Part shown: in pieces, positions 34,799 to 55,968 of the stretch
Numbering within the stretch: the first letter of the stretch is position 1
Layout: each line of letters opens with the position of its first letter
Assembly (NCBI GenBank): GCA_016931695.1
Contig: JAFGEI010000159.1
Coordinates: 18,608 to 82,607, forward strand
DNA from: Anaerolineae bacterium
GTDB lineage: Bacteria > Chloroflexota > Anaerolineae > B4-G1 > DUEL01
Direction of reading: 5' to 3'
DNA length: 64,000 nucleotides
Notes under the pieces: model-generated
Seen by the model: the letters and a program-made list of their open reading frames with translations, nothing else
What the model was told of the DNA's origin: nothing
Databases searched by the model: none
Translations under genes and position numbers: made by a program

Positions 34799-35209
34799 AT
34801 GATGATGCGAACGACAATTTCGTCGAACAAGGTGCGCAGCAAATTTGTCCAGGATGTTCAGGACATTAGCGGCCAAGACCTGCTGAGCTGTAATCAGTGT
34901 GGCAAGTGCAGTGCCGGATGCCCGGTGGCGGGGACGATGGACTTGCTCCCCAGCCAGGTCGTCCGCATGGCCCAGCTGGGCATGGAGGAGGTCCTCTCCA
35001 GCCGGACAATTTGGACTTGTGCTTCTTGCCTGACCTGCGTCACTCGTTGTCCAAAAGGCGTTGATCTCCCGCGGATGATGGAGGCGCTGCGAGAAATCTC
35101 GCTGCGCGCGGGCGTGTCCAAGATTGACTTGAACAGCTTGCCGCCGGAGCTGTTGCGAGAGTTGCCACAGCTGGCCATCGTCGGCGGTTTTCGCAAGTAT
35201 ATCAAGTAG
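34799..35209 (+). CDS. hdrC: heterodisulfide reductase subunit C-like (2x[4Fe-4S])
   Basis: CNQCGKCSAGCPV and CASCLTCVTRCPKGV ferredoxin motifs. 136 aa. Followed by an HdrB-like gene. Confidence 0.8.
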   Translation: MMMRTTISSNKVRSKFVQDVQDISGQDLLSCNQCGKCSAGCPVAGTMDLLPSQVVRMAQLGMEEVLSSRTIWTCASCLTCVTRCPKGVDLPRMMEALREISLRAGVSKIDLNSLPPELLRELPQLAIVGGFRKYIK

Positions 35210-35263
35210 GTAGGGCGGCAGTGGCGCGAATGGCGTCGGGCCATTCGTGTTGTGGAGATGTTT

Positions 35264-36121
35264 ATGGGCATACCGTATTATCCTGGATGTACGCTTTCGA
35301 CCAAGGCCGGGGGCTATGACCGCTCTGGCCGGGCGGTCGCTGCCGCTTTGGGGATGGATCTGGTCGAGCTACCCAACTGGCAGTGTTGCGGGGCGACGTT
35401 CCCGCTGGCGACCGATAACAGCCTGGCCTTGATCGCCCCGACGCGGGTGCTTTACGAGGCGGAACAGGCTGGCGAGCAGGTGGCGACGTTGTGCGCCATT
35501 TGCTATCACGTTCTCAAACGGACGCAGACGACCCTGGCCAAAGACACCGAGATGCTGGAGCGCATCAATTGGTTCACCGAGCAGGACTATGAAGGGCGGG
35601 TCGAGGTGGTCCACTTTCTCCAGCTCTTGCGCGACCAGTTGGGCTGGGAGGCGTTGGCTGAGCGGGTGGTTCGTCCTTTGACGGGGTTGCGGGCTGCCCC
35701 TTACTATGGCTGCCTGCTGCTGCGCCCTTACAACGAAATCGGCCTCGACGATCCCGAAGCGCCTTTGATCTTGCACGACCTGCTCCGCGCCTTGGGCGCC
35801 GAGCCGGTCGATTTTCCGTACAACATTGAATGCTGCGGCTCCTACCTGACGGTCAGGGAGCCAGAAATATCAGAGGGCTTGTCGCGCGAGATTGTCGCTT
35901 CCTCGCGCGAGCACGGCGCCCAGGTCTTGGTCACTGCCTGTCCGCTTTGCCAGTTCAACCTGGAGTATCCGCAGCGCGCGACTGGTTTTGGGCGCACCGG
36001 CAACGAAACCCCCATCCTCTACTTTACGCAGCTGATGGCGGTCGCCTTGGGTCTGCCGGAAGAGGACTGGGGGATGGAGGACCACTATGTGGACCCGCGC
36101 CCGTTGTTTGAAACGGCGTGA
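35264..36121 (+). CDS. hdrB: heterodisulfide reductase subunit B-like (two CCG domains)
   Basis: PYYPGCT...NWQCCGATF and APYYGCLLLRP...NIECCGSYL CCG-domain motifs. The start is chosen at ATG 35264 (GGAG 6 nt upstream). Confidence 0.8.
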   Translation: MGIPYYPGCTLSTKAGGYDRSGRAVAAALGMDLVELPNWQCCGATFPLATDNSLALIAPTRVLYEAEQAGEQVATLCAICYHVLKRTQTTLAKDTEMLERINWFTEQDYEGRVEVVHFLQLLRDQLGWEALAERVVRPLTGLRAAPYYGCLLLRPYNEIGLDDPEAPLILHDLLRALGAEPVDFPYNIECCGSYLTVREPEISEGLSREIVASSREHGAQVLVTACPLCQFNLEYPQRATGFGRTGNETPILYFTQLMAVALGLPEEDWGMEDHYVDPRPLFETA

Positions 36122-36153: not shown

Positions 36154-37305
36154 ATGCAGTATAAACTGTTTATCCCCGGCCCCTGCGAGGTCGACGAGGC
36201 CGTCTTGTCGGCGATGGCGCAACAGACCCGCCCGCATTATGGCGCCGAGTGGCTGGAGGTCCATCGGGAGGTATCGAGCCTCCTGCGGCAGATCTTTGAA
36301 ACTGAGAACGACATATTCTTGGTGCCGGGTGCTGGCTCAGCGCTGCTCGACATGGCCTTGGGCAGTATGCTGGCGACAGGGGAGACGGTTATCGTCGGGG
36401 ACAATGGTTTTTTCGGCTCTCGCTTGCAGGCGATGGCCAGGGGCTATGGGTTGCGGGTCGTTTCGTTGCTTGCGGAGCATGGCCATCCGCTCGATCCCGA
36501 CGACTTGCGGCGCTTGTTAGCCCGCGAGCCGGCGGCGCGGGCAGTCGCGGTGATTCACCACGAGACGGCGACGACGGTACTCAACCCCCTCCAGGAGCTG
36601 GCAGCCGTGACCCACGAAGCGGGGCTGCCCATCATTGTCGACGCGATCTCTTCCCTGGGCGGGGTCTCTCTCCCGGTGGATGCGTGGGGGATTGACGTCT
36701 GCGTCTCGGTCGCCAACAAGTGCCTGGAATGTCCGCCGGGAGTGGCCTTTATCTCGGTGGGGCCCCGTGCATGGGAGTGGGTGGACGGCCACGAGAACCA
36801 GCATCACGGCTGGTATCTGGACCTGCGGACTTGGCGCCAGTACGCGACCGAGTGGGCCGACTGGCACCCGTCCCCGGTCACGATGCCGACCAACAACATC
36901 TTGGGGCTGCGCGTCAGCCTGCGCAACATCGTCGGCAAGGGGCTGGAGAATCACTTTGCCCACTTTCGGCAGGCGGCTCACGCGGTGCGGCAGGGGCTGG
37001 GGGCGATGGGTTTTGCGCAGATGGTCGCCGAGCCGTACGCTTCCCCCATCGCCACGGCGTTCAAGGCCCGGCCCGAGTTTGCGGTCAAGGAGCTGATCGA
37101 CTACCTGGCTCAATCGCAGGGGATACTGGTTTCCGGCGGGCTGGGCCCGCTGGCGGGCAGGGTCTTTCGCGTCGGGCACATGGGCAAGGCGGCGACGCCG
37201 CCCTACATCAAAGAGTTCTTGTCCGCTGTCGCCTTGTTTATGCGCCAACGCGGCTTCGAGTTCTCGGAGGCGGATGTCTACTCCGGCCTGGTGGAGAAGG
37301 TATGA
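36154..37305 (+). CDS. class V pyridoxal-phosphate aminotransferase (serine-pyruvate/alanine-glyoxylate type)
   Basis: LFIPGPCEV N-terminus, DAISSLGG, and a 'SVANKCL' PLP-Lys region. 383 aa. The stop overlaps the hdrA ATG (ATGA). Confidence 0.75.
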   Translation: MQYKLFIPGPCEVDEAVLSAMAQQTRPHYGAEWLEVHREVSSLLRQIFETENDIFLVPGAGSALLDMALGSMLATGETVIVGDNGFFGSRLQAMARGYGLRVVSLLAEHGHPLDPDDLRRLLAREPAARAVAVIHHETATTVLNPLQELAAVTHEAGLPIIVDAISSLGGVSLPVDAWGIDVCVSVANKCLECPPGVAFISVGPRAWEWVDGHENQHHGWYLDLRTWRQYATEWADWHPSPVTMPTNNILGLRVSLRNIVGKGLENHFAHFRQAAHAVRQGLGAMGFAQMVAEPYASPIATAFKARPEFAVKELIDYLAQSQGILVSGGLGPLAGRVFRVGHMGKAATPPYIKEFLSAVALFMRQRGFEFSEADVYSGLVEKV

Positions 37306-39092: not shown

Positions 39093-39665
39093 ATGGCGGA
39101 TGTTTGGGATCAAATCGCGCGCTATCGCAAGGTAAAAGTTTTGGCTGATGGTTCTCGCCTGCTGCTGCGACCGCTGCAGGAGGCGGACGAAGAAGCCCTG
39201 GTCGAGCTGTTTGCCCGCGCGTCGCGTGAGGATATCGAGTGGTTCCGCAGCGATGCGGCCGACCCCAATGTCGTGCGGCGATGGGTCGACCATCTCGATT
39301 ATCGGCGCGTTTTCCCCTTGATCGCCTTGGTTGGCGACCAGTTGGTGGGTGATGCGACGCTCCATTTTGGTGAGCACTATCACCGCCACCTGGCGTGGGT
39401 GCGCATCTTTTTGGACAAGCAGTACCGGCGGCAGGGAATTGGCACGTTGATGATGCACAGCATGATCGAAATTTCCCAGTTGATCGGCCTGCAGCAGTTG
39501 TACGGTGAGGTGGTCATCAACCAGGCGCACGTCATCCGCGGCTTTCAGGATATGGGCTTTCGACACGAGGTGACCCTGCAGGATTATTTTATCACCAGCA
39601 AGGGCGATCTGTTGGACATGGCGATCCTGGTGCTGCGGATGGTCGATCACACAGGGCAGTTTTAG
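39093..39665 (+). CDS. GNAT-family N-acetyltransferase
   Basis: Acetyl-CoA-binding motif QYRRQGIGTLMM and LRPLQEADEEALVELF N-terminal pattern. 190 aa. Confidence 0.75.
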   Translation: MADVWDQIARYRKVKVLADGSRLLLRPLQEADEEALVELFARASREDIEWFRSDAADPNVVRRWVDHLDYRRVFPLIALVGDQLVGDATLHFGEHYHRHLAWVRIFLDKQYRRQGIGTLMMHSMIEISQLIGLQQLYGEVVINQAHVIRGFQDMGFRHEVTLQDYFITSKGDLLDMAILVLRMVDHTGQF

Positions 39666-39682
39666 GCTGCCAGGAGGTGTCA

Positions 39683-40258
39683 ATGGGTGCGAGCCGGGAC
39701 CTGTCGTTCGCCGAGATGGTTCAGGAACAGAGTGGGGAGCCGGTCCAGCGCTGCTACTTTTGCCAAAAGTGTACCGCTGGCTGCCCGGTCGCCTACGCGA
39801 TGGACGTGAAACCGGCCCAGCTTTTGCGCTTGATTCAACTGGGAGAGAAGGAGGCGGTGCTGGGCAGTTCCGCCATTTGGCTTTGTGTGAACTGCCAAAC
39901 GTGCGGGGCGCGCTGTCCCAACCAGATTTACCTGGCGGGGATGTATGACGCCCTGCGGCAAATGGCGCTGGGCGAGGGATATGCGCCGGAGCCTTCTGTC
40001 TATGCCCTTCACCGCTCGTTCCTCGACAGCATCAAGATGTGGGGCCGCGTGCACGAGTTGACAATGTTGATGGAGTACAAGATGCGCTTGTTGCCCAAGC
40101 CAGCTATCTTTTTTGACGGGCTGGTTTCGGACTTGATGATGGGCGGGGGCCTGATTGCCAAGGGCAAGATATCGTTCGTTCCGGAACGGGTCAAGCGCCT
40201 GAAGGAAGTACGCCGGCTTTACGAGACGAATAGTCCTGGCACGGAGGTGGAGCCGTGA
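39683..40258 (+). CDS. hdrC: heterodisulfide reductase subunit C-like
   Basis: CYFCQKCTAGCPV and CVNCQTCGARCPN. ATG 39683 lies 5 nt after CAGGAGG. Confidence 0.8.
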   Translation: MGASRDLSFAEMVQEQSGEPVQRCYFCQKCTAGCPVAYAMDVKPAQLLRLIQLGEKEAVLGSSAIWLCVNCQTCGARCPNQIYLAGMYDALRQMALGEGYAPEPSVYALHRSFLDSIKMWGRVHELTMLMEYKMRLLPKPAIFFDGLVSDLMMGGGLIAKGKISFVPERVKRLKEVRRLYETNSPGTEVEP

Positions 40259-41097
40259 AGTACGCCTACTATCCTGGTTGCACCATCGAGACCACGGCGG
40301 TCGAGTTCGGCCGTTCCACCAATGCGGTCTGCGAGGCGTTGGGCATCGAATTGGTCGAGATCGAGGACTGGAACTGCTGCGGCGCGTCTTCGGCACACAG
40401 TCTCGACCACGAACTCTCCCTGCGCCTCCCGGCGCGGAACGTTGTCCTGGCCCAAGAGATCGGGGGCGACATTGTTGCCCCGTGCCCGGCCTGCTACCAA
40501 AACGTCCTCGCCGCCGACAACCGTCTGCGGGAGGACGAGGCCTGGCGGCGGCAGATGGAAGAGGTCGTTGGGGCAGCCTACACCGGGCAGGGACGCCCGC
40601 GCCACTTGTTGGAAGTGCTCAGCGAGCCTGAGGCCTTGGCTGCGGTCCGCGCCCGGGTCAAGCGCCCCTTGGCAGGGCTCAAGGTTGCTTCTTACTATGG
40701 CTGCGTGCTTGTCCGCCCGCCAGAGATCACCGGGTGGGACGACCCGGAGCACCCAGTGCGGATGGACGTACTGATGGCTGCCCTGGGGGCCGAAGCGGTC
40801 GATTGGTCTTATAAGGTTGACTGCTGCGGCGCCAGCCTGACCTTGAGCCGCAGTGAAATCGTCGTTCACCTGTCTACCCGCCTGGCCGAAGCGGCGGTGG
40901 AGGCGGGGGCGGACGTGGTTGCTGCGGCCTGTGGCATCTGCCAGATCAATCTCGACACGCGCCAGAAGCATATTCCTGCTCTCTATTTTACCGAGTTGAT
41001 GGCCCTCGCCTTTGACTTGCCCAACCTGGATCGATTGTTCAAGAAACACGGGGTCGATCCCCGCCCGGTGCTGCGGCGGCGCGGGTTGTTTGCGTAG
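40255..41097 (+). CDS. hdrB: heterodisulfide reductase subunit B-like
   Basis: YYPGCT...DWNCCGASS and SYYGCVLVRP...KVDCCGASL CCG motifs. The GTG start overlaps the hdrC TGA. Confidence 0.8.
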   Translation: MKYAYYPGCTIETTAVEFGRSTNAVCEALGIELVEIEDWNCCGASSAHSLDHELSLRLPARNVVLAQEIGGDIVAPCPACYQNVLAADNRLREDEAWRRQMEEVVGAAYTGQGRPRHLLEVLSEPEALAAVRARVKRPLAGLKVASYYGCVLVRPPEITGWDDPEHPVRMDVLMAALGAEAVDWSYKVDCCGASLTLSRSEIVVHLSTRLAEAAVEAGADVVAAACGICQINLDTRQKHIPALYFTELMALAFDLPNLDRLFKKHGVDPRPVLRRRGLFA

Positions 41098-46634: not shown

Positions 46635-48335
46635 ATGATGAGTGAGAAGTCAAAACCGCGCATCGGCGTCTATGTTTGCCACTGCGGCACCAACATTGCT
46701 GCGACGGTCGACGTGGAAGCGGTGGCCGAGTATGCCCAGAACCTGCCGGGCGTCGTGCAGGCGCGGCACTATACCTACATGTGCTCGGATCCGGGACAGA
46801 CGCTGATCAAGGAGGACTGCCGGGCATTGGGCTTGAACCGCGTCGTCGTGGCTTCTTGCTCTCCACGCATGCACGAACCGACCTTTCGCGCTGCGGCCCA
46901 GGAGGGCGGGGTCAATTCCTATCGCACCGAGATGGCCAATATCCGCGAGCAGTGCTCCTGGGTCCACCACGACAAGGAGGCGGCCACGCGCAAGGCCAAG
47001 GTGCTGGTCGCTTCGGCGGTGGCCAAGGTGACCCATCTCGAACCGCTGGAGGAGCGGGAGGCGGGCGTGCATCCGGGGACGCTCGTTATCGGCGGCGGCG
47101 TGGCCGGGCTGTCTGCCGCGCTGGACGTCGCGGAGGCTGGCTTTCCGGCCTATATCGTCGAAAAGAGCGATCGCCTGGGCGGGCACGTGGCCGAACTGGG
47201 ACACACCTTTCCCGACCTGGAGCCGACGGCGGACTGGCTGGCGCCGCTGATTCGCCGGGTGGAGGAGCACCCCGCGATCACGGTCATGCTCGACGCGCAG
47301 GTGGAAGAGGTGGCGGGCTTTGTCGGCAATTTTGAGGTTACTGTCTTGCAGGGCGGGCAGGCGCAGCAGATTGACGTGGGGACGATCGTTATCGCCACCG
47401 GCTACCAGCTTTTCGACCCCAGCCGCAAGCCCGAGTTCGGTTATGGCCGCTACCCGGGCGTGCTCACGACCTGGGAATTGGAGCAGCGGCTGGCCACGGG
47501 CGACCTGGTCGTGGCGGGCCGGGCGCCGCAGGACGTTGCCTTTATCAAGTGTGTTGGCTCCCGCGACATTCAACTGGGCAACCCCTACTGCTCGCGCGTC
47601 TGCTGCATGGTCGCGGCCAAGCAGGCCCAGATGGTGCGCCAGGCGCTGCCCGAGACGCGGGTCACCGTGTTCTACATCGACGTGCGCGCTTTTGGCAAGC
47701 GCGGCGAAGAGTTTTACGATGAGGCGCGCGAGGCCGGCGTGCGCTACCGCCGCGGCAACGTCTCCGAGGTCTATCGCCGGGGCGAGCGGCTGGTGCTGCG
47801 GGTGGAGGACACGTTCTTGCGCCGCACGGTGGAGCACGAAACGGACATGGTGGTGCTGGCGGTGGGGATGGAGCCGCGTGACGACACGGGCGTGATCTCG
47901 GCGCTGCTCAAGCTGCCGCGCTCTGCCGACGGCTTTTTCCTCGAGGCGCATCCCAAGTTGGGGCCGGTGGATACGACGACGAACGGGGTCTTTTTGGCCG
48001 GCTGCTGCCAGGCCCCCAAGGATATTCCTGATACCGTGGCCCAGGCCAAGGCGGCAGCCTCGTCGGCGCTGATCCCGTTGATTCGGGGGACGGTGCCGGT
48101 CATCTCGGAGACGGCAATTGTGGATGCCGAGCTCTGCGCCGGCTGTGGGATGTGTGTCGATGTCTGTCCCTACGGCGCGCCGGCGCTCGACCCGCTGTGG
48201 GGTGTCTCGCGCATCAATGCCGTGTTGTGTAAGGGGTGCGGCGCCTGTGCCGTGACCTGTCCGTCCAAGGCGATTTGCCTGCAGCAGTTTACGCCGGAAC
48301 AGATCATGGCCCAGGTCGACGTACTGACGGTCTAG
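46635..48335 (+). CDS. hdrA: heterodisulfide reductase subunit A (canonical)
   Basis: RIGVYVCHCGTNIAATVD, LVIGGGVAGLSAAL, AFIKCVGSRD..YCSRVCCMV, CAGCGMCVDVCPY / CKGCGACAVTCPS. The start is at ATG 46635, after the upstream stop at 46626. Confidence 0.9.
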   Translation: MMSEKSKPRIGVYVCHCGTNIAATVDVEAVAEYAQNLPGVVQARHYTYMCSDPGQTLIKEDCRALGLNRVVVASCSPRMHEPTFRAAAQEGGVNSYRTEMANIREQCSWVHHDKEAATRKAKVLVASAVAKVTHLEPLEEREAGVHPGTLVIGGGVAGLSAALDVAEAGFPAYIVEKSDRLGGHVAELGHTFPDLEPTADWLAPLIRRVEEHPAITVMLDAQVEEVAGFVGNFEVTVLQGGQAQQIDVGTIVIATGYQLFDPSRKPEFGYGRYPGVLTTWELEQRLATGDLVVAGRAPQDVAFIKCVGSRDIQLGNPYCSRVCCMVAAKQAQMVRQALPETRVTVFYIDVRAFGKRGEEFYDEAREAGVRYRRGNVSEVYRRGERLVLRVEDTFLRRTVEHETDMVVLAVGMEPRDDTGVISALLKLPRSADGFFLEAHPKLGPVDTTTNGVFLAGCCQAPKDIPDTVAQAKAAASSALIPLIRGTVPVISETAIVDAELCAGCGMCVDVCPYGAPALDPLWGVSRINAVLCKGCGACAVTCPSKAICLQQFTPEQIMAQVDVLTV

Positions 48336-48380
48336 AATTTTCTCGGTATACTCGTGTAATTTGACGTGGAGGGAAACAGC

Positions 48381-48809
48381 ATGAGCGATGAGTCGTTCGA
48401 GCCCAAGATCGTTGCTTTCCTGTGCAACTGGTGCACCTATACCGGCGCTGACCTGGCTGGCACGTCGCGCATTCAGTATCCGCCCAACGTGCGGATCATC
48501 CGCCTGATGTGTTCGGGTTCGGTGGACCCCACCTACGTGCTCAAGGCGCTCCTGGATGGCGCGGACGGAGTGTTGATCGGCGGCTGTCACCCCGGTGACT
48601 GCCACTACCAGTCGGGCAACTACAAGGCCCGGCGGCGGATCATTGCCTTGAAAGAGATTGTCAAGCAGGCCGGGCTGGACGAGGAACGGGTCTGGCTGCG
48701 CTGGGTATCGGCCTCGGAGGGGCAGCGCTTTGCCGACGTGGTGACCCAGATGGTCGGGGCCTTGAAAGAGAAGGGCCCCAATCCGCTGCGGCAGGAGTGG
48801 GCGGTATAG
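48381..48809 (+). CDS. mvhD: MvhD-like [2Fe-2S] electron-transfer protein (copy 1, all-Cys)
   Basis: PKIVAFLCNWCTYTGADLAG, YPPNVRIIRLMCSGSVD, and DGVLIGGCHPGDCHY. Confidence 0.9.
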   Translation: MSDESFEPKIVAFLCNWCTYTGADLAGTSRIQYPPNVRIIRLMCSGSVDPTYVLKALLDGADGVLIGGCHPGDCHYQSGNYKARRRIIALKEIVKQAGLDEERVWLRWVSASEGQRFADVVTQMVGALKEKGPNPLRQEWAV

Positions 48810-48831
48810 CAAAACTCGCCGAGAGGGAGAT

Positions 48832-49950
48832 ATGATGAGAACTGTAATTCCAGTTGAGAACAATGATGTGCTGGGCGCCGCGCGCGGTTTTCTCAAGCAG
48901 TTATTGGAAAAAGAGATCGTGGAGGCCGTCCTGGCGCCGATGGAGACGCCGTCGGGCTCTGTGACTCCTGCCCTGGTCGCGGACCCCGCGCTGCTGGACG
49001 CCGCCAACCCGTTCGCCCCGGTGATGGGGCTGAACGCGGCGCGGGTGGTTGGCCCGGTCTCGGCGCGCGAGCCGCGCGGCCGGATCGCGGCGGTCCTGCG
49101 CCCCTGCGAGATGCGGGCCCTGGTCGAGCTGGTCAAGCTGCAGCAGGCGGCGCTGGAGGATCTGGTGACTATCGTCGTCGATTGTCCTGGCACCTACCGC
49201 GTGACCGATTACGATGCCATGCGCGCGAACGGCGGCGTGAACCAGGACGACCTGCTGGCGGCAATGCAATCGGGCGAGGCGGCGCCGCGAGAGGGCTATG
49301 TCTTCCGCGACGGCTGTCAGATGTGCGAAAAGCCGCACGCCGAAGGGGCGGACATCACCTTCGAGCTGTTTGGGGCAAATCTCAGCGCGGGGATTCCCCT
49401 CTCGCTGCCCGACGAACTGGCGGAAAAGCTGGGGCTGGCACCGGCCGATGGGCCGGGCGGCCGAGCCGAGGTCGTCGAGAAGGTGGCGGCGGCGCGGCGG
49501 CAGGCGCGGGACACCCGCTTTTCCGAGATTCGCCAGCGTTTGGCGAATGAGGGGATCGCCGGGGTTTTTGCCTCTTGCATCCGCTGTCACAATTGTATGA
49601 CTACCTGCCCGATCTGCTATTGCAAAACTTGCCTCTTCAAGTCGCCCATTTTTGACCACGATCCGGCCCAGTACCTGAACTGGGCGCAGCGCAAGGGCGC
49701 CTATCGCCTGCCGGCCGATACGACGATCTTTCATCTGACGCGCTTGAACCACATGGTTCTCTCTTGTATTGGCTGTGGCGTCTGCAGCGACGCCTGCCCG
49801 GCGGACTTGCCGGTGGCGCGGGTGTTCCGCGCCGTGGGCCAGGATCTGCAGGCGCTCTTTGAGTACGAGCCTGGCCGGAGCGTCGACGATCCACTGCCGC
49901 TCATCACCTTCCGCGAGGATGAGTGGACAGGTGTCGGAGAAGAACGATAG
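48832..49950 (+). CDS. Fe-S oxidoreductase subunit, FrhB/AsrA(HydB)-like with C-terminal 2x[4Fe-4S]
   Basis: AVLRPCEMRALVEL (FrhB-like PC-motif), CIRCHNCMTTCPICYC and CIGCGVCSDACPADL. The family assignment is approximate. Confidence 0.45.
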   Translation: MMRTVIPVENNDVLGAARGFLKQLLEKEIVEAVLAPMETPSGSVTPALVADPALLDAANPFAPVMGLNAARVVGPVSAREPRGRIAAVLRPCEMRALVELVKLQQAALEDLVTIVVDCPGTYRVTDYDAMRANGGVNQDDLLAAMQSGEAAPREGYVFRDGCQMCEKPHAEGADITFELFGANLSAGIPLSLPDELAEKLGLAPADGPGGRAEVVEKVAAARRQARDTRFSEIRQRLANEGIAGVFASCIRCHNCMTTCPICYCKTCLFKSPIFDHDPAQYLNWAQRKGAYRLPADTTIFHLTRLNHMVLSCIGCGVCSDACPADLPVARVFRAVGQDLQALFEYEPGRSVDDPLPLITFREDEWTGVGEER

Positions 49951-49958
49951 GAGGATGT

Positions 49959-50660
49959 ATGGCAACTGAAACTCGAGTCGCTGACAACAAGATGATCCCG
50001 ATCTATATCATGGGGAAGCAGTATCTCGTTCCCCCCGCACTGACGATCATGAAAGCGATGGAGTATGCCGGCTACAAGCTGATCCGGGGGGTGGGCTGCC
50101 GCGGCGGGTTCTGCGGCGCGTGCGGCACTGCGTATCGCATTCAGGGCGATCCCAAGCTCTACTTTGGCCTGGCCTGCCAGACGGTGGTGCAGCCGGGAAT
50201 GTACCTGGCCCAACTGCCGTTTTTCCCCGCCCGGCGCGAGACGTATGACATCAGCCAGCTGGAGCCGACGGCGACGACGTTGTTCAGCCTGTACCCCGAA
50301 GTCCTGCGCTGCCTGGGCTGTGGCGCCTGCACCAAGGCTTGCCCGCAGGAAATTGACGTGCGCGACTATATGGCCGCGGCGATGCGCGGCGACCTGGCCA
50401 AGCTGGCGGACACGTCGTTTGACTGCATTATGTGCGGCCTCTGCGCGGCGCGATGCCCGGCAGAGGAGGCGCAGTATAACATCGCCATCCTTGCCCGGCG
50501 CCTGTACGGCCGCTATCTTGCCCCCCGCTCCGAGCATCTGGAAAGGCGGCTGGAAGAGATCGAGACGGGCAAGTTTACGGTCGACCTGGAAGAGTTAAAG
50601 GGGTTGGGTGAAGAGGAACTCAAGGTGCGGTACAAGGCGCGGGACATTGAACCCAAGTGA
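49959..50660 (+). CDS. succinate dehydrogenase/fumarate reductase iron-sulfur subunit-like protein
   Basis: 2Fe-2S-type CRGGFCGACG, then CLGCGACTKACP and CIMCGLCAARCP. ATG 49959 follows TAGGAGGA. Confidence 0.6.
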   Translation: MATETRVADNKMIPIYIMGKQYLVPPALTIMKAMEYAGYKLIRGVGCRGGFCGACGTAYRIQGDPKLYFGLACQTVVQPGMYLAQLPFFPARRETYDISQLEPTATTLFSLYPEVLRCLGCGACTKACPQEIDVRDYMAAAMRGDLAKLADTSFDCIMCGLCAARCPAEEAQYNIAILARRLYGRYLAPRSEHLERRLEEIETGKFTVDLEELKGLGEEELKVRYKARDIEPK

Positions 50661-50673
50661 GAGGAGTGGTAGA

Positions 50674-52281
50674 ATGAGTGGCTATCCGCCTGAAATGCAA
50701 GAATCGATTCGCTCTGTCGAGGCCACCCGCGCCCGGCGAGTGGGCGAGACCTTTCCCGCCATGAGTATGGAACAGCGCGAGAAAATCCTCAGCGGCTTTC
50801 ACCCGGACTATCGGGAAGAAACCTTTCACGCCGTGCGCGTCGGTGTCAGCAAGGGGCAGCGCATGCCGGTTGAGCTGGCCCGCGTGGTGGAAGCGCGACC
50901 ACACGTTGGCGCGGATTTCGACCTGAGCGCTCCGGTTGCCGAGACGGACGTGTTGGTGATCGGCGGGGGCGGCGGCGGGGCCTCGGCTGCCCTCCTGGCC
51001 CAGGAGAGCGGGGCCAGGGTCATCTTGGTGACCAAGCTCCGCTTCGGCGATGCCAACACGGTGATGGCCCAAGGCGGCATCCAGGCTGCCGACCGGCCGG
51101 AAGACAGCCCGTCGATTCACTACCTGGACGTGATTGGGGGCGGGCACTTTACCAACGTCCCCGACCTGGTCGAAGCGCTGGTTACGGATGCGCCATGTGT
51201 CATCAAGTGGCTCGAGGACCTGGGTATGATGTTTGATAAAGAGCCCGATGGCACGATGATGGAAGAGCACGGCGGCGGCACCAGCCGCAAGCGGATGCAC
51301 TCGGCGCGGGATTATTCGGGGGCCGAGATCATGCGCACGCTGCGGGACGAGGTGCGCAACCGGGAAGAGCATATTGCCGTCGTCGAGTTCTCGCCTGCCG
51401 TGGAGCTGGTGCTGGACGACCAGGGCCGGATTGCCGGGGCAGTGGTGGTGAACCTAGAGACCGGCGTGTACGGTTACATCAAGGCCAAGGCGGTGGTTTT
51501 GGCCACCGGCGGCGGCGGCCGGCTGCATTATCAGGACTTTCCCACGACCAACCACTATGGCGCGACGGCTGACGGCGTGGTCCTGGCCTATCGCGTTGGC
51601 GCACCGTTGGGCTACCTGGAATCGATGCAGTACCATCCCACTGGCGCGGCTTTTCCGGAACAAATCTTGGGCCTGCTGGTCACGGAAAAGGTGCGCGGGT
51701 TGGGGGCTCAACCGGTCAACAAACGCGGCGAGCAATTTGTCTACCCCCTGGAGCCGCGCGACGTGGAGGCGGCGGCGCTGATCCGCGAGTGTTCGGAGCG
51801 CGGCAATGGCGTCGTGACCCTGACTGGCCAGCCTGGCGTGTGGCTTGATTCGCCAATGATCGACATGATTCACGGTCCCGGCACGATTCAGCGTGCTTTG
51901 CCGGCGATGGTGCGCCAGTTTGCCCGCTTTGACATCGACATTGCCCAGGAACCGATCTTGGTCTACCCCACGCTGCACTATCAGAACGGCGGCGTGCGGC
52001 TGAAGGCTGACGCCTCGACCGACATACCGGGCCTTTTTATTGCCGGCGAGGTGAGCGGCGGAGTTCACGGGCACAACCGGTTGATGGGCAACAGCTTGCT
52101 GGAGATCACTGTCTTTGGCCGGCGAGCGGGCCGTACCGCCGCTCACTATGCCGGGCAGGTGATGCTGGCCGCGCCGAACCTGGCGCACGTCGCAGCCTGG
52201 AACCGGGAGATGGAGGCGGCCGGAATCGACACCGACGTCATCTCCCCCATCCTGCTGCCTGATTACGTTCATCGGGAATAG
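50674..52281 (+). CDS. FAD-binding flavoprotein of the succinate dehydrogenase/fumarate reductase/L-aspartate oxidase family
   Basis: DVLVIGGGGGGASAALLA, NTVMAQGGIQAA (no His at the covalent-FAD position), MQYHPTG, TEKVRGLGA, and IPGLFIAGEVSGGVHGHNRL. About 90-aa N-terminal extension. Confidence 0.7.
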   Translation: MSGYPPEMQESIRSVEATRARRVGETFPAMSMEQREKILSGFHPDYREETFHAVRVGVSKGQRMPVELARVVEARPHVGADFDLSAPVAETDVLVIGGGGGGASAALLAQESGARVILVTKLRFGDANTVMAQGGIQAADRPEDSPSIHYLDVIGGGHFTNVPDLVEALVTDAPCVIKWLEDLGMMFDKEPDGTMMEEHGGGTSRKRMHSARDYSGAEIMRTLRDEVRNREEHIAVVEFSPAVELVLDDQGRIAGAVVVNLETGVYGYIKAKAVVLATGGGGRLHYQDFPTTNHYGATADGVVLAYRVGAPLGYLESMQYHPTGAAFPEQILGLLVTEKVRGLGAQPVNKRGEQFVYPLEPRDVEAAALIRECSERGNGVVTLTGQPGVWLDSPMIDMIHGPGTIQRALPAMVRQFARFDIDIAQEPILVYPTLHYQNGGVRLKADASTDIPGLFIAGEVSGGVHGHNRLMGNSLLEITVFGRRAGRTAAHYAGQVMLAAPNLAHVAAWNREMEAAGIDTDVISPILLPDYVHRE

Positions 52282-52379
52282 GGGGAAGAGCCGGCCCGGC
52301 TAGCTGAAAGATGCGAGATCTGCCGCATTAACTGTACCCAAAAACGGGTATGGTGCTTGAGGAAATAGCGAGGGATTTT

Positions 52380-55300
52380 ATGCCATTCGGAACAAGACAA
52401 GACTCGGTGGGGAATGTGCTGGTCGTTGGCGGCGGCGTGGGGGGCATGCGGGCGGCAATGGACCTGGCCGAGGCGGGGCTAAAAGTTTACCTGATCGAAA
52501 ACCTGCCCTGGTTGGGGGGACGGGTCGCCCAGCTGGGATACATGTTCCCGACCCACGACTGCGTTCTGTGCCGCGGTTCGTCGGATCACGGCTATGGTTG
52601 CACCCGGCCGGCGATCTCTCCCGCCTTTCTCGATTTCAACCGTCATCCCAACATCGAGATCATGGCCAATACAGACCTGATCAAAGCCGAAGGGCAGGCG
52701 GGGGATTTTACCGTTACCGTCCGCCATCGCCCGACACACGTCGATAACGCGCGCTGCATCAACTGCAGCCTCTGTACGGCGGTCTGCCCGGTCGATCTAC
52801 CCAGCCCCTTTGAGGCCGGTCTGGCAGCGCGAAAGGCGGTCTACAAGATGGCCCCCCGCGCGCTGCCGGATTCCTACGTGGTCGACAAGGTGCCGCGCTG
52901 TGATACCTGCCGCCGCTGCGAATCTATCTGCCCTACCGGGGCGATTGACCTGGATGAGGAACCCTACGAAGTCGATCTGTCTGTTGGGGCAATTATCCTC
53001 TCGGTTGGCTACACCCTCTCCGATCCTGGCGAGTACGAGGAGCTGGGCTACGGTCGCTACCCGAACGTCATTCACTCTATGCAGTACGAGCGGCTCGTCA
53101 GCCGCTCCGGGCCGACGGAGGGCGTCGTTCTGCGGCCTTCGGATGGCAAGCTGCCGAAGCGTATCGCGTGGCTGCAGTGTATTGGTTCCCGCGACGAAAA
53201 GTATCCCTACTGCTCCTCCATCTGCTGCATGTACTCGACCAAAGAGGCTATCCTGGCGAAGGAGCGCATTGAGGGTGTGCATTGCCAGGTCTTTATCATG
53301 GACGAACGGGCCTTTAACAAGGAGTTTAACGCCTATTACGAGCAGGCGCGGACCCACTACGAGGTGGAGTATACGCGCTGTCGCATTCAGCAGGTGCTCC
53401 AAGACCCCAAGACCCACGATCTCATCCTGCGCTATCCTGACGAGGGCGGCGTGGTCAAGGAAGAGCGCTTTGACATCGTGGTGTTGTCCGTTGGCTCGCG
53501 CCCGCCGTCGACTGCCGAGGAGCTGGCCCAGGTGCTGGGCATCGAGCTGAATCCGTACGGCTTTTGCGAGACGGACCCCTTTGCCCCGCTACAGACCAGC
53601 GAGCCGGGCATCTATGTCTGTGGCACCTTTTCTTCGCCCAAAGAGATCGCCGAGACCATCCTCGACGCGGCTGGCGCGGCCGGCGACGTGATGCGGCTGA
53701 TGCGCCGCCACCTTGGTGCTGCCCCCTCCAGCCGCGAGCATCCCTTTCTCTGGCAACCGAACGGCATGGTTCCCGAGCGGGACGTGAGCGGAGAGCCGCT
53801 GCGGATCGGCGTCTTTCTCTGCCGCTGTCGCCCGACGCTGGACGGCATCGTCCAGGTTGACGAACTGGACCGGTTTGCCCAGGGGTTGGAGGACGTGGTG
53901 CACGTACAGCCGCTCGACTATGGCTGCTTCGAGGCGGGCCTGGAGGCAATTCGCACGGCGATTGAGGACCTGCGCCTCAACCGCGTGGTGATCGGCGCCT
54001 GCAGCCACCGCACCCACGAACCGCTCTTTCAGCGCACGGTGCGGGAAGCGGCGCTGAATCCGTACCTGCTGGAGATGGTCAACTTGCGCGAGCAGTGTGC
54101 GTGGGTTCACGTTGGCGATCCGGATCGAGCGACTCGCAAAGCGCAAGAGATGATCCGCATGGCAGTTGCGCGGGTTCGCGTCGCCCAGCCGGTACACAAG
54201 CTGGCTGTCCAAACCGAGCCCTCAGCCCTGGTCATCGGCGGGGGGGTGTCGGGGATGACCGCCGCCCTCTCTATCGCCGATGCCGGCTACAACGTCTTTT
54301 TGGTGGAGCGGGATGCAGAGCTGGGGGGCAACTTGCGTCACGTTTACTACACTGCCAGCGGGCAGAATCCGCAGCGGCTGTTGCGTGATTTGGTGAACCG
54401 GGTCATCGGGCACGAACGAGTGCAGGTCTTTACCCGCACCAAAGTCGTTTCTCACGACGGGTATGTGGGGGCGTTTCGCTCCTTGCTGCGCCGGCAGCCG
54501 CGCGACAACCAGGACCCGGTTGAGGTAGAGATTTCCCACGCGGTGACGGTCGTGGCGACGGGCGGGCAGGAATGGCGCGGCGATGTCTACCTGCTCGGTC
54601 AAGACCCGCGCGTCGTCACGACGTTGGAACTGGAAGACACCATCGCCCATCGCCCCGAACAAATTGTCGGCATGAAGCAGGCGGTCTTTATCCAGTGCGT
54701 GCGCCCGCCGAGCGAGGTCGAGTACTGCAGCCGCATCTGTTGCACCAATACCATCAAGAACGCGATCCGGATCAAGATGCTCAATCCCGACTGCCAGGTT
54801 GTGGTTCTCTACAAGGATATTATCACCTATGGCTTCCGCGAGGCGTATTATACCGAAGCCCGCCGACGGGGGGTGCTCTTTATGCGCTACGACGACGAGC
54901 ACTTGCCCGGCATTCGCCAGGAGGACGGGCAGCTGCGGCTCGTCGCCTGGGATGCGGTCCTGGGACAAGATGTCCTGTTCCAGCCCGACCTGGTGGTCCT
55001 GAGCATGGCAATCGAGCCTTCCGCGGGGATCGAGGAGCTGGCGCAGGTGTTGGGGGTGCCGCTTTCTGTCGAGGGCTTTTTTATGGAGGCCCATCTCAAG
55101 ATGCGGCCAATGGACTTTGTGAAGGAGGGGCTCTTTTTCTGCGGCATCGCCCATTACCCCAAGTTCCTGGACGAGTGTATCACCAATGCCCAGGCAACTG
55201 CCGGGCGGGCGCTCACGATTCTGACCAAGGATCGCCTCTATGTGGGCGGCGTCGTGGCCGAGGTGGACCAGTCGCTCTGTGTCGGCTGCCTGACCTGCGT

Positions 55301-55508
55301 GCGCACCTGTCCCTTTGAGATTCCCAAGGTGCGGTATTCGGACGTGGGAGTGGGCAAGATCAAGGGCGCGGCCTACATCGAGCCGGCCTTGTGCCAGGGC
55401 TGCGGGACGTGCGTGGCCGAGTGCCCGGCCAAGGCGATCCAGTTGGCGACGTATCGCGACGAGCAGATTATGGCCCAGCCGCTGGGGAGTTGGGTAAAAG
55501 ATGCGTGA
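52380..55508 (+). CDS. double-module HdrA-like flavoprotein (~1042-1052 aa)
   Basis: VLVVGGGVGGMRAAM and ALVIGGGVSGMTAAL FAD folds. AWLQCIGSRD..YCSSICCMY and VFIQCVRPPSEVEYCSRICC. Central RIGVFLCRCRPTLDG. C-terminal CVGCLTCVRTCPF / CQGCGTCVAECPA. The start is either 52380 (AGGGA upstream) or 52350. Confidence 0.8.
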   Translation: MPFGTRQDSVGNVLVVGGGVGGMRAAMDLAEAGLKVYLIENLPWLGGRVAQLGYMFPTHDCVLCRGSSDHGYGCTRPAISPAFLDFNRHPNIEIMANTDLIKAEGQAGDFTVTVRHRPTHVDNARCINCSLCTAVCPVDLPSPFEAGLAARKAVYKMAPRALPDSYVVDKVPRCDTCRRCESICPTGAIDLDEEPYEVDLSVGAIILSVGYTLSDPGEYEELGYGRYPNVIHSMQYERLVSRSGPTEGVVLRPSDGKLPKRIAWLQCIGSRDEKYPYCSSICCMYSTKEAILAKERIEGVHCQVFIMDERAFNKEFNAYYEQARTHYEVEYTRCRIQQVLQDPKTHDLILRYPDEGGVVKEERFDIVVLSVGSRPPSTAEELAQVLGIELNPYGFCETDPFAPLQTSEPGIYVCGTFSSPKEIAETILDAAGAAGDVMRLMRRHLGAAPSSREHPFLWQPNGMVPERDVSGEPLRIGVFLCRCRPTLDGIVQVDELDRFAQGLEDVVHVQPLDYGCFEAGLEAIRTAIEDLRLNRVVIGACSHRTHEPLFQRTVREAALNPYLLEMVNLREQCAWVHVGDPDRATRKAQEMIRMAVARVRVAQPVHKLAVQTEPSALVIGGGVSGMTAALSIADAGYNVFLVERDAELGGNLRHVYYTASGQNPQRLLRDLVNRVIGHERVQVFTRTKVVSHDGYVGAFRSLLRRQPRDNQDPVEVEISHAVTVVATGGQEWRGDVYLLGQDPRVVTTLELEDTIAHRPEQIVGMKQAVFIQCVRPPSEVEYCSRICCTNTIKNAIRIKMLNPDCQVVVLYKDIITYGFREAYYTEARRRGVLFMRYDDEHLPGIRQEDGQLRLVAWDAVLGQDVLFQPDLVVLSMAIEPSAGIEELAQVLGVPLSVEGFFMEAHLKMRPMDFVKEGLFFCGIAHYPKFLDECITNAQATAGRALTILTKDRLYVGGVVAEVDQSLCVGCLTCVRTCPFEIPKVRYSDVGVGKIKGAAYIEPALCQGCGTCVAECPAKAIQLATYRDEQIMAQPLGSWVKDA

Positions 55509-55968
55509 GGAGGGGAGCTTGACTGACGCAGGAAATAACGGCCAGGGGGAATTTGAGCCCGAGATCACGGCATTTACCTGTATCTACTGTGGCTACATGG
55601 CAGCAGATACCGCCGGCGCGCTGCGGCTCAAGTATCCGCCCAACGTGAAACTGGTACGCATGCCGTGCACTGGCAAGGTCGATGTGCGTTACATCTTGCA
55701 GGCCTTTGAACAGGGCGCGGACGGCGTCTATATCGTCGCTTGCCCAATTGGCAACTGTCACCATATTCATGGCAATGAGCGTGCAGTGGCGCGCGTCAAG
55801 TACACCAAAAGGCTCCTGGACGAGGTGGGGGTTGGAGGGGATCGGCTAGAGATTCTCTTTGCTTCGGGTGGAATGGGGGCGACCTTTGCTGAATCCGCTC
55901 ACGCGATGGTGGAGCGGGTCAAGCAGATAGGGCCGAATCCATTGAAGCTGGCGCCCGGAGCCGGGTAA
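55501..55968 (+). CDS. mvhD: MvhD-like protein (copy 2, all-Cys)
   Basis: PEITAFTCIYCGYMAADTAG, YPPNVKLVRMPCTGKVD, and DGVYIVACPIGNCHH. The start overlaps the upstream stop by 8 nt. Confidence 0.85.
   Translation: MREEGSLTDAGNNGQGEFEPEITAFTCIYCGYMAADTAGALRLKYPPNVKLVRMPCTGKVDVRYILQAFEQGADGVYIVACPIGNCHHIHGNERAVARVKYTKRLLDEVGVGGDRLEILFASGGMGATFAESAHAMVERVKQIGPNPLKLAPGAG

Follow-up and report, generated by a model that had tools for sequence, protein, structure and literature searches.

A soluble SdhAB-like pair in a heterodisulfide reductase-type gene cluster of an uncultured Anaerolineae bacterium: a probable Hdr-coupled fumarate reductase

The stretch analysed here is a 64,000-nt window (GC content ~62%) from the metagenome-assembled genome (MAG) of an uncultured member of the Anaerolineae (Chloroflexota), a genome that is 93% complete. 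Six genes of this window, all on the forward strand (48366-55968), encode in this order an MvhD protein (MvhD1), an FdhB/FrhB-like iron-sulfur (Fe-S) protein, an SdhB-like Fe-S subunit, an SdhA/FrdA-like flavoprotein, a tandem HdrA and a second MvhD (MvhD2) (Table 1). Calls of open reading frames together with Pfam and NCBIfam searches bear out this order, which an earlier reading of the letters alone (the sequence-only reading) had given. The intergenic distances range from -8 to +68 bp, and a promoter/terminator scan placed no terminator-like site in any gap of the set; the counts of that scan equal shuffle expectation and its promoter-like matches at 48324 and 50647 are not significant. As had been claimed, no SdhC/D-type membrane anchor gene is found among the neighbours, all of which encode soluble proteins of heterodisulfide reductase (Hdr) type according to Pfam and NCBIfam. 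Based on the evidence below, we consider it reasonably probable that the SdhA-like and SdhB-like proteins are the terminal, high-potential module of an Hdr-coupled soluble fumarate reductase, which would gain reduced ferredoxin as succinate is formed.

The flavoprotein carries a complete dicarboxylate site. In an alignment of seven sequences that includes E. coli SdhA, FrdA and NadB (residue numbers are those of the 535-aa flavoprotein), the fumarate-binding and protonating residues H321-P322-T323, T337-E338, R341, R362-D363, H435 and R469 are invariant, so that all SdhA/FrdA residues of the site are kept. The HPTG and R-G-x-G motifs pointed out by the sequence-only reading are present as H321-P322-T323-G324 and R341-G-L-G344. 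Across an alignment of 37 family members from many phyla, the positions of the dicarboxylate site, catalytic His and Arg residues included, are invariant except for T337, which is Ser in P0130. The D-A-N-T of the flavoprotein aligns with the R-S-H-T of E. coli SdhA/FrdA, leaving Asn at the histidyl-FAD position as previously noticed, and its flavin adenine dinucleotide (FAD) is predicted to be bound non-covalently. The GxGxxG of the FAD-binding fold starts near residue 93, hence the protein indeed has the ~90-aa N-terminal extension described before. This extension is conserved, with near-invariant R19, H43-P44-D45, G57 and G61 in the 37-member alignment, and an AlphaFold2 model (predicted local distance difference test, pLDDT, 93.4; predicted template modelling score, pTM, 0.92) confidently resolves it into a pair of helices plus a small sheet. 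The best structural match of the model is E. coli FrdA (1kf6_A, E 4.5e-37), with mycobacterial SdhA and flavocytochrome c3 fumarate reductases among the further matches. At the other end of the protein, P525, P529 and Y531 of the C-terminal tail are near-invariant across phyla. Both the extension and the tail may be docking surfaces for Fe-S or Hdr partners.

Placement by hidden Markov models and phylogeny against SdhA, FrdA, TfrA and NadB, part of a check put forward along with the sequence-only reading, resulted in a clade of its own. In a maximum-likelihood tree of 106 sequences (quick search, support by the Shimodaira-Hasegawa-like approximate likelihood ratio test, SH-aLRT), the N-extended family and a set of ~400-aa short forms are split from all other sequences at 100 SH-aLRT, with the verified-TfrA, the E. 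coli SdhA/FrdA and the NadB clades on the opposite side. The flavoprotein of the window groups (98 SH-aLRT) with members from Blautia, Thermoplasmata, Cloacimonadales and others. Judged from these sequences, it belongs to a separate, well-supported clade that is neither classical SdhA/FrdA nor methanogen TfrA. Its top NCBIfam model is TfrA, matched with 332.6 bits (cut-off 718) over model positions 5-409 of 546, compared to 850 and 887 bits for true TfrA controls, the former being the verified TfrA of Methanobrevibacter thaueri. The ~400-aa flavoproteins (P0156, P0161, P0179 and others; L116 from Thermoleophilia), which lack both the N-terminal extension and the C-terminal domain, constitute a subclade (98) inside the same major clade. 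Two PF00890 genes are present in the 93%-complete genome: the one encoding the flavoprotein and one for a NadB of full length, which scores above the NadB cut-off. Since the only other PF00890 gene is a bona fide NadB, the genome has no classical Sdh/Frd.

Several known identities were considered and rejected. NadB, the placement against which the sequence-only reading was to be judged, scores 276 bits with TIGR00551 (cut-off 452.75); the flavoprotein lies outside the NadB clade (100 SH-aLRT), in which E. coli NadB stands together with the genome's own NadB, it is paired with an Fe-S subunit and its neighbours are strongly co-conserved. It is also not NadB because the genome encodes its own NadB elsewhere. 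At the position of the NadB-specific Glu, the flavoprotein has Gly in the alignment with E. coli NadB. An AprA/Qmo-like identity is contradicted by E 2e-4 to 1jnr/2fja versus E 1e-50 to 1e-68 for Sdh/Frd chains. A classical quinone-linked SdhA/FrdA disagrees with the Asn in place of His, the Pfam search of the flavoprotein, which gave no match to the C-terminal SdhA domain PF02910, the neighbourhood without an SdhC/D-type gene and the full Cys4 motifs of the B subunit. Finally, TfrAB as it occurs in methanogens does not fit a flavoprotein far below the TfrA cut-off with a partial model match, nor an SdhB-like protein without a CCG domain.

The SdhB-like gene adjoins the gene of the N-extended-clade flavoprotein in every mapped locus with neighbouring DNA present. 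Its product has an SdhB-type 2Fe-2S motif, C-x4-C-x2-C...C, followed by two complete CxxCxxCxxxCP motifs, from which two 4Fe-4S clusters and no 3Fe-4S cluster are predicted; a Pfam search found no CCG domain in this protein. Natural SdhB-SdhA fusions exist (P0125, P0274, P0277). A word-based search for fusions of the SdhB-like protein with HdrB, MvhD or the FdhB-like protein, of a kind that would miss distant TfrB-type fusions, returned SdhA fusions and one single-contig FlxA fusion and nothing else. The FlxA fusion, P0275 (521 aa, one metagenome contig), combines a FlxA-like FAD/NAD-binding domain with an SdhB-like domain that is 56% identical to the SdhB-like protein of the window; it may be a genuine fusion, or else two neighbouring genes with a frameshift. 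Among solved structures, the FdhB-like protein matches best, over nearly its entire length, the FdhB subunits by which methanogen Hdr supercomplexes dock on MvhD/HdrA (9t1s_M, E 1e-23; 8rvu_E, E 6e-19, residues 20-358; 7bkb_E; range E 1e-23 to 6e-17), and it shares 23% identity with Blautia FlxC. Searches of the 93%-complete genome detected neither of the F420 biosynthesis genes CofE and CofG, making an F420 donor via this protein unlikely. A role in electron transfer, as an adaptor, is more probable for it than one as a site for F420. Two FdhB-like paralogues, one ~31% and the other ~46% identical to the copy of the window, flank the SdhB-like gene in two Anaerolineae genomes (L014:11234-14166 and L041:1200-4200).

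The gene organization within the class argues for a unit larger than the six genes. In a sample of 121 Anaerolineae genomes, the SdhA-like gene was found in 45 (31 of 86 genera), most matches being 64-84% identical, and the FdhB-like gene in 40, each of these 40 also carrying the SdhA-like gene. Both genes lie at most 8 kb apart in 28 of the 45, a number counted by hand from coordinates in which many of the different-contig cases are fragmented MAGs. Based on tblastn maps of 25 Anaerolineae loci, a recurring operon comprises FumA-alpha, FumA-beta, HdrC, HdrB, short HdrA, HdrA, optionally HdrC, HdrB and tandem HdrA, and then MvhD, FdhB-like, SdhB and SdhA. This fumarase-Hdr-SdhBA operon is encountered in other Anaerolineae families (L038, L039, L035+L013, L036+L018, L037+L031). 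The SdhA-like gene is usually the last one of the Hdr cluster, and in the loci mapped in detail MvhD stands immediately 5' of the FdhB-like gene. The order HdrC_a-HdrB_a-SdhB-SdhA appears in L023, L029, L003, L046, L061, L067, L070, L083 and L101, while orthologues of the tandem HdrA HdrA2x_1 directly precede MvhD1 in L015-L019, L021-L023 and L039. HdrL (an NfnB/GltD-like HdrA fusion) is located directly 5' of MvhD-FdhB-like-SdhBA in L013, L014, L020 and L024, and of MvhD-FdhB-like alone in L030.

Among the loci mapped, the downstream flank of tandem HdrA, MvhD2, HdrL and MetVF is restricted to this window, L001 and L040. The sequence-only reading had placed the SdhBA pair and the FdhB-like gene in a sandwich of mvhD and hdrA genes. 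That arrangement is real in this window, but the downstream flank is lineage-limited, and thus the sandwich is a feature of the lineage and the conserved partners are the upstream genes, namely the HdrC, HdrB and HdrA paralogues, MvhD and the FdhB-like gene. Consequently, we place the functional unit differently: it probably extends upstream to 34799. The second tandem HdrA may belong either to the fumarate or to the MetVF module. AcsB is present in 74 of the 121 genomes, and the SdhA-like gene in 39 of these 74 versus 6 of the 47 without AcsB; Wood-Ljungdahl genomes are thus enriched for the module, yet the pathway does not require it and its genes are not usually next to those of the pathway.

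The window itself is one long same-strand island. Wood-Ljungdahl genes (fhs, cooS, acsB, acsD, acsC, RACo, cooC, acsE, folD) at 20-34.7 kb are followed by an Hdr supercluster at 34.8-48.3 kb with two HdrC/HdrB pairs, HdrA_a, a tandem HdrA, a short HdrA, an HdrD-like gene and HdrA_c. The short HdrA-like protein is the best-conserved HdrA partner across phyla, Clostridia included. The identity of the HdrD-like protein rests on Pfam, the HdrD rows of the tblastn locus maps being unreliable. Downstream of MvhD2, HdrL (1501 aa, NfnB/GltD-like and HdrA units), a third MvhD with selenocysteine (Sec), MetV/MetF and another HdrD-like gene are found. Altogether the HdrA-type genes of the cluster number at least five, with HdrL and the two tandem HdrAs among them. 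Genes for a class V aminotransferase and for a GNAT acetyltransferase lie in between the Hdr genes, and a GNAT homologue stands beside the Hdr cluster again in L014 and L018. Beyond the window, the same strand continues (C208:82555-88300, corresponding to L033:1555-7300) with a CooC-like ATPase, a Peptidase_C39-like protein, the alpha and beta subunits of a class I fumarase and an H+-pyrophosphatase. This two-subunit fumarase, 12.6 kb downstream on the same contig, is the sole PF05681 match in the genome. The Mdh of Blautia as query gave no tblastn match at 1e-10 in the genome, other Mdh/malic-enzyme families not having been searched. Elsewhere in the genome, a FlxC-FlxB-FlxA-like set (C168:38685-41349) and a FlxB-FlxA-like set (C216:4009-5847), 30-44% identical to those of Blautia faecis, are possible alternative entry modules for NAD(P)H.

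Table 1. Features of the Hdr-SdhBA cluster and its surroundings (window coordinates unless a contig is named).
Feature	Coordinates	Strand	Basis and remarks
HdrC_a, HdrC-like 2x[4Fe-4S]	34799-35209	+	likely reductase partner; orthologues directly before HdrB_a, in many genomes directly before SdhB-SdhA
HdrB_a, HdrB-like CCG-domain protein	35252-36121	+	PF02754, E 4e-19
Class V aminotransferase	36154-37305
HdrA_a, HdrA-like flavoprotein	37302 (approximate start)-39026	+	Pyr_redox_2 + Fer4; syntenic in Fum-Hdr-Sdh operons L038, L039
GNAT acetyltransferase	39093-39665
Second HdrC-like / HdrB-like pair	39677-40258 / 40255-41097	+	CCG E 9e-24; syntenic in L015, L016, L019, L039, L043, L090
HdrA2x_1, tandem HdrA, 1006 aa	41106-44126	+	two FAD/Pyr_redox_2 units + Fer4
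Short HdrA-like, 438 aa	44136-45452	+	FAD-binding N-terminus + one Fer4
HdrD-like	45331 (uncertain start)-46626	+	Fer4 dicluster + 2 CCG; PF02754 E 4e-32, Fer4_8
HdrA_c, HdrA-like	46650 (approximate start)-48335	+	Pyr_redox_2 + Fer4; syntenic in L001, L017, L030, L040
MvhD1, MvhD/FlxD-type [2Fe-2S] protein	48366-48809	+	PF02662, E 7e-54
FdhB/FrhB-like (distantly FlxC-like) Fe-S adaptor, 372 aa	48832-49950	+	marginal PF04432 + two Cys4 motifs
SdhB-like Fe-S subunit, 233 aa	49959-50660 (start probable)	+	Cys motifs
SdhA/FrdA-like flavoprotein, 535 aa, catalytic subunit	50674 (probable start)-52281	+	PF00890, E 2e-71
N-terminal extension of the flavoprotein, residues 1-90	50674-50943	+	conserved in the 37-member alignment
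C-terminal tail of the flavoprotein	52246-52266	+	near-invariant residues
Second tandem HdrA, 1052 aa	52350-55508	+	two FAD-binding N-termini; HdrA2 model 813 bits, three stretches
MvhD2	55501-55968	+	PF02662, E 2e-42; 8-bp overlap with the tandem HdrA stop
Class I fumarase, two subunits	C208:84098-85600	+	sole PF05681 match in the genome

The gene-neighbourhood survey that had been suggested along with the sequence-only reading shows the Hdr, MvhD and FdhB-like neighbours recurring outside the Anaerolineae as well. A scan of one genome per species, in which ~20 kb around the flavoprotein gene were mapped, revealed full-length members with 47-64% identity in many bacterial and archaeal phyla. 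Bacterial carriers belong to Bacillota (including the cultured Blautia faecis), Bacteroidota, Spirochaetota, Aminicenantes, Cloacimonadales, Thermodesulfobacteriota, Planctomycetota, Nitrospira, Leptospirillum and Pseudomonadota, archaeal ones to Thermoplasmata, Bathyarchaeota, Theionarchaea and Desulfurococcales; gut Clostridia are rich in members of the clade. The commonest neighbourhood is HdrB-HdrC-HdrA-MvhD-(Flx/FdhB-like)-SdhB-SdhA, often followed by fumarase. Genes for 2-oxoglutarate:ferredoxin oxidoreductase (OGOR) precede or follow it in L003, L060, L071, L073, L078, L087, L094 and L097, with members from Aminicenantes and Thermoplasmata among them, and a class I fumarase is part of the operon in L038, L039, L042, L107 and others. 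This is well illustrated by the operon of Blautia faecis (L107), which reads Mdh, HdrB, HdrC, HdrA, MvhD, FlxC, FlxB, FlxA, SdhB, SdhA, FumA-alpha, FumA-beta and encodes a flavoprotein of the same clade, 56% identical to that of the window and with the same N-terminal extension. Such a neighbourhood pattern is hard to explain unless fumarate is reduced in a reductive branch of the tricarboxylic acid (TCA) cycle with interchangeable electron-input modules. A proteobacterial subclade is devoid of Hdr genes and has the order SdhB-like, SdhA-like, NuoF-like, the last with Complex1_51K and NADH_4Fe-4S domains (L119 Variovorax davisae, L111 Kingella, L112 Cardiobacteriaceae, L005/L006 with P0126). 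Its gene content predicts a three-subunit soluble NADH:fumarate reductase, including one in an aerobic soil genus.

The sequence-only reading had left the substrate unspecified. Given the conserved linkage with class I fumarase, Mdh and OGOR and the complete set of fumarate-site residues, it can be narrowed, and fumarate is the most likely substrate. We propose that the SdhA-like and SdhB-like proteins would act as a cytoplasmic, anchor-less fumarate reductase with non-covalent FAD, one 2Fe-2S and two 4Fe-4S clusters, at the end of a large Hdr-type complex that would be encoded at ~34.8-52.3 kb and would consist of MvhD, the FdhB-like adaptor, the HdrC/HdrB pairs and more than one HdrA paralogue. 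Fumarate, formed from malate by the dehydrating activity of the linked class I fumarase, would be reduced to succinate. The entry point for NAD(P)H could be HdrL or a Flx module encoded elsewhere, and electrons would then flow through the FdhB-like protein and on through MvhD to an HdrA flavin. This flavin would split the pair: one electron would reach SdhB, the FAD of SdhA and fumarate, by way of either HdrC/HdrB or MvhD with the FdhB-like protein, and the second one would go uphill to ferredoxin. Reduced ferredoxin could then supply CO dehydrogenase/acetyl-CoA synthase and the 2-oxoacid:ferredoxin oxidoreductases of this Wood-Ljungdahl organism. The potentials are +30 mV for fumarate, -320 mV for NADH and about -450 to -500 mV for ferredoxin; comparing NADH with the mean of fumarate and ferredoxin, bifurcation is favourable. 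Gene content, residue conservation, clade membership and synteny are read directly from the DNA; we infer from them that the proteins form a complex, what its electron donor is, in which order it is wired and that it bifurcates. The proposal of a soluble, Tfr-like reductase wired to HdrA and MvhD is accordingly upheld in its parts that concern the sequence, with bifurcation continuing to be inferred.

A number of observations weigh against this model. Both HdrB and the FdhB-like protein with MvhD are candidate donors to SdhB, and the fusion search does not discriminate between them. Contact with HdrB is favoured by the TfrB precedent and the frequent order HdrC-HdrB-SdhB-SdhA, the adaptor route by the order MvhD-FdhB-like-SdhB in Anaerolineae. 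The window has no FlxA/FlxB homologue, the best matches being on contigs C168 and C216, and HdrL, here downstream beside MetVF, may serve MetVF instead. Class I fumarases can hydrate mesaconate too, and the fumarase paralogues in most Anaerolineae operons are 30-37% identical to that of this genome. The tree was built by a quick method, with SH-aLRT as its only support. Moreover, the source is an uncultured MAG for which co-transcription and complex formation are predicted from the genes, and in the literature searched we found no biochemical demonstration, be it purification or assay, for any member of the clade.

The alternative that deserves most attention, though we regard it as unlikely, is a two-step thiol:fumarate logic as in TfrAB, in which SdhAB would be fed by thiol oxidation at an HdrB-like CCG protein, with a small thiol or DsrC-like carrier whose disulfide is re-reduced in a separate Hdr/HdrA reaction. 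Fumarate would then drive bifurcation indirectly, without a continuous Fe-S wire from HdrA to SdhA. Indeed, the common order HdrC-HdrB-SdhB-SdhA equals a split TfrB, a protein in which an SdhB-like domain is fused to CCG domains; TfrA and TfrB are the top NCBIfam matches of the two subunits; three CCG proteins are encoded in the cluster; and the model for Endoriftia permits a DsrC-like carrier (PMC11636981). Yet the flavoprotein lies outside the verified TfrA clade (333 bits against the cut-off of 718), no thiol carrier gene is seen in the cluster, and SdhBA occurs with HdrA-MvhD and no HdrB match in L091 and L079, both of them short contigs. Bacteria of the class Anaerolineae are not known to make coenzyme M or coenzyme B either. 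It is rather improbable that the substrate is something other than fumarate, for instance a mesaconate-like 2-enoate that is reduced, or L-aspartate or another dicarboxylic acid that is oxidised, the putative fumarase being a matching hydratase. None of the characterised fumarate reductases in the tree falls within the clade, the operon hydratases in most Anaerolineae are divergent, as stated above, and the conserved N-terminal extension is without known function. The invariant and complete set of fumarate-site residues contradicts such a substrate, as do the absence of the NadB-type Glu combined with the presence of a separate NadB, the lack of another fumarate reductase candidate in the genome, and the linkage with Mdh and OGOR, which fits a route of oxaloacetate, malate, fumarate, succinate, succinyl-CoA and 2-oxoglutarate. 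In addition, the succinate producer Pseudoclostridium thermosuccinogenes has the operon as its proposed fumarate reductase (PMC7282089).

In this window as well as in L001 and L040, SdhA-like, tandem HdrA, MvhD2, HdrL, MvhD(Sec), MetV and MetF follow each other on one strand with short gaps. SdhAB might thus be part of an Hdr-linked methylene-tetrahydrofolate (methylene-THF) reductase, with fumarate as co-acceptor or SdhAB as extra electron exit of HdrL-MvhD-MetVF. The second acceptor of the HdrL-MvhD-MetVF-type complex of Moorella is still unidentified, and the enrichment of the SdhA-like gene in AcsB genomes points in the same direction. Nevertheless, we consider this very unlikely: most Anaerolineae SdhAB clusters are on another contig than acs or distant from it, their Hdr cluster ending at the SdhA-like gene with no MetF nearby, 35 of the sampled AcsB genomes are without the SdhA-like gene, and gut Clostridia and autotrophs with the reductive TCA (rTCA) cycle (Nitrospira, Leptospirillum) have neither acs nor metF in the ~20 kb mapped. 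The chance is just as slim that, in this lineage, one supercomplex couples NAD(P)H oxidation to the reduction of methylene-THF, fumarate and ferredoxin; if it did, fumarate would be the long-sought extra acceptor of the Hdr-type methylene-THF reductase. Least probable of all is the oxidative direction, i.e., a soluble succinate dehydrogenase whose electrons are confurcated with reduced ferredoxin onto NAD(P)+. Sdh/Frd chemistry is reversible and Hdr-type modules run either way, but succinate at +30 mV and ferredoxin at about -450 mV average about -210 mV, too positive for NAD(P)+ at -320 mV, and the reductive branch is favoured both by the linked genes for fumarase, Mdh and OGOR and by what is described of P. 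thermosuccinogenes physiology (PMC7282089).

An Hdr/Flx-coupled, possibly bifurcating fumarate reductase has already been proposed in print (PMC7282089, PMC6315080, PMC8542988), and the literature searched contained no description of the module specific to Anaerolineae. If the mechanism of the Hdr-coupled fumarate reductase is correct, the high-potential acceptors by which Hdr-based flavin bifurcation is driven would include fumarate besides heterodisulfide and crotonyl-CoA, and the extra reduced ferredoxin from the reductive TCA branch would provide energy or CO2-reducing power to quinone-free anaerobes. The wide distribution of the clade may also explain many 'orphan' bacterial Hdr complexes.

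Among the known systems, the closest by description is the 'succinate operon' that P. thermosuccinogenes transcribes, with fumarase, FlxABCD-HdrABC and a two-subunit fumarate reductase, where Flx-Hdr is assumed to link the reduction of fumarate to that of ferredoxin (PMC7282089); the proposal goes back to a preprint (Koendjbiharie and van Kranenburg, 2019), as cited there. Both loci have a soluble fumarate reductase pair with HdrA, HdrB, HdrC, an MvhD/FlxD-type protein and a class I fumarase, and the same coupling is proposed; the sequence comparison itself was made with the equivalent operon of Blautia faecis. In contrast to P. thermosuccinogenes, FlxA (the NAD-binding subunit) and FlxB are not adjacent here, an FdhB-like protein takes the position of FlxC, and the window has its at least five HdrA-type genes and a Wood-Ljungdahl island. 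HdrL is the candidate for NAD(P)H entry in place of FlxA/FlxB. Comparable clusters have been described in tubeworm symbionts and Thioflavicoccus, with Hdr-Flx, KorABCD and 'TfrAB' in an rTCA context (PMC6315080) and co-expression (PMC11636981), in Cloacimonadota, with a soluble fumarate reductase, Mvh-Hdr and the same bifurcation proposal (PMC8542988), and in Bipolaricaulia (bioRxiv 10.1101/2023.11.26.568696). They share with the window a soluble AB-type fumarate reductase among Hdr-type genes and, with its relatives, the OGOR linkage. Compared by description to the symbiont-type clusters, the window has no OGOR or ATP-citrate lyase and a Wood-Ljungdahl instead of an rTCA setting. A 'putative soluble fumarate reductase A/B' is also listed for Nitrospirota in a survey of rTCA autotrophs (PMC13147460).

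Similar to TfrAB of Methanobacteriales (NF004900/NF004898), the window pair is predicted to be soluble with non-covalent FAD, and it shows no anchor, a full second 4Fe-4S motif and a link to HdrB-type CCG domains. It differs in the absent C-terminal domain, the N-terminal extension, the location of CCG on separate HdrB-like proteins and the separate clade. The methanogen FdhAB-MvhD-HdrABC supercomplexes (7bkb, 8rvu, 9t1s) likewise have an FdhB-type protein beside MvhD and HdrA, yet no FdhA is present here and the neighbouring catalytic module is SdhAB. The five-subunit soluble fumarate reductase of Hydrogenobacter thermophilus (Miura et al., 2008, as cited in PMC13147460) is, by the description given in that citation, also a multi-subunit enzyme with FrdA/FrdB-like components in a quinone-independent reductive TCA branch. 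There, NADH is the donor and, as far as the citing source reports, ferredoxin coupling is not involved, unlike in the proposal for the window. To these systems the Anaerolineae locus adds a Flx-less variant with an FdhB-like adaptor in a Wood-Ljungdahl setting.

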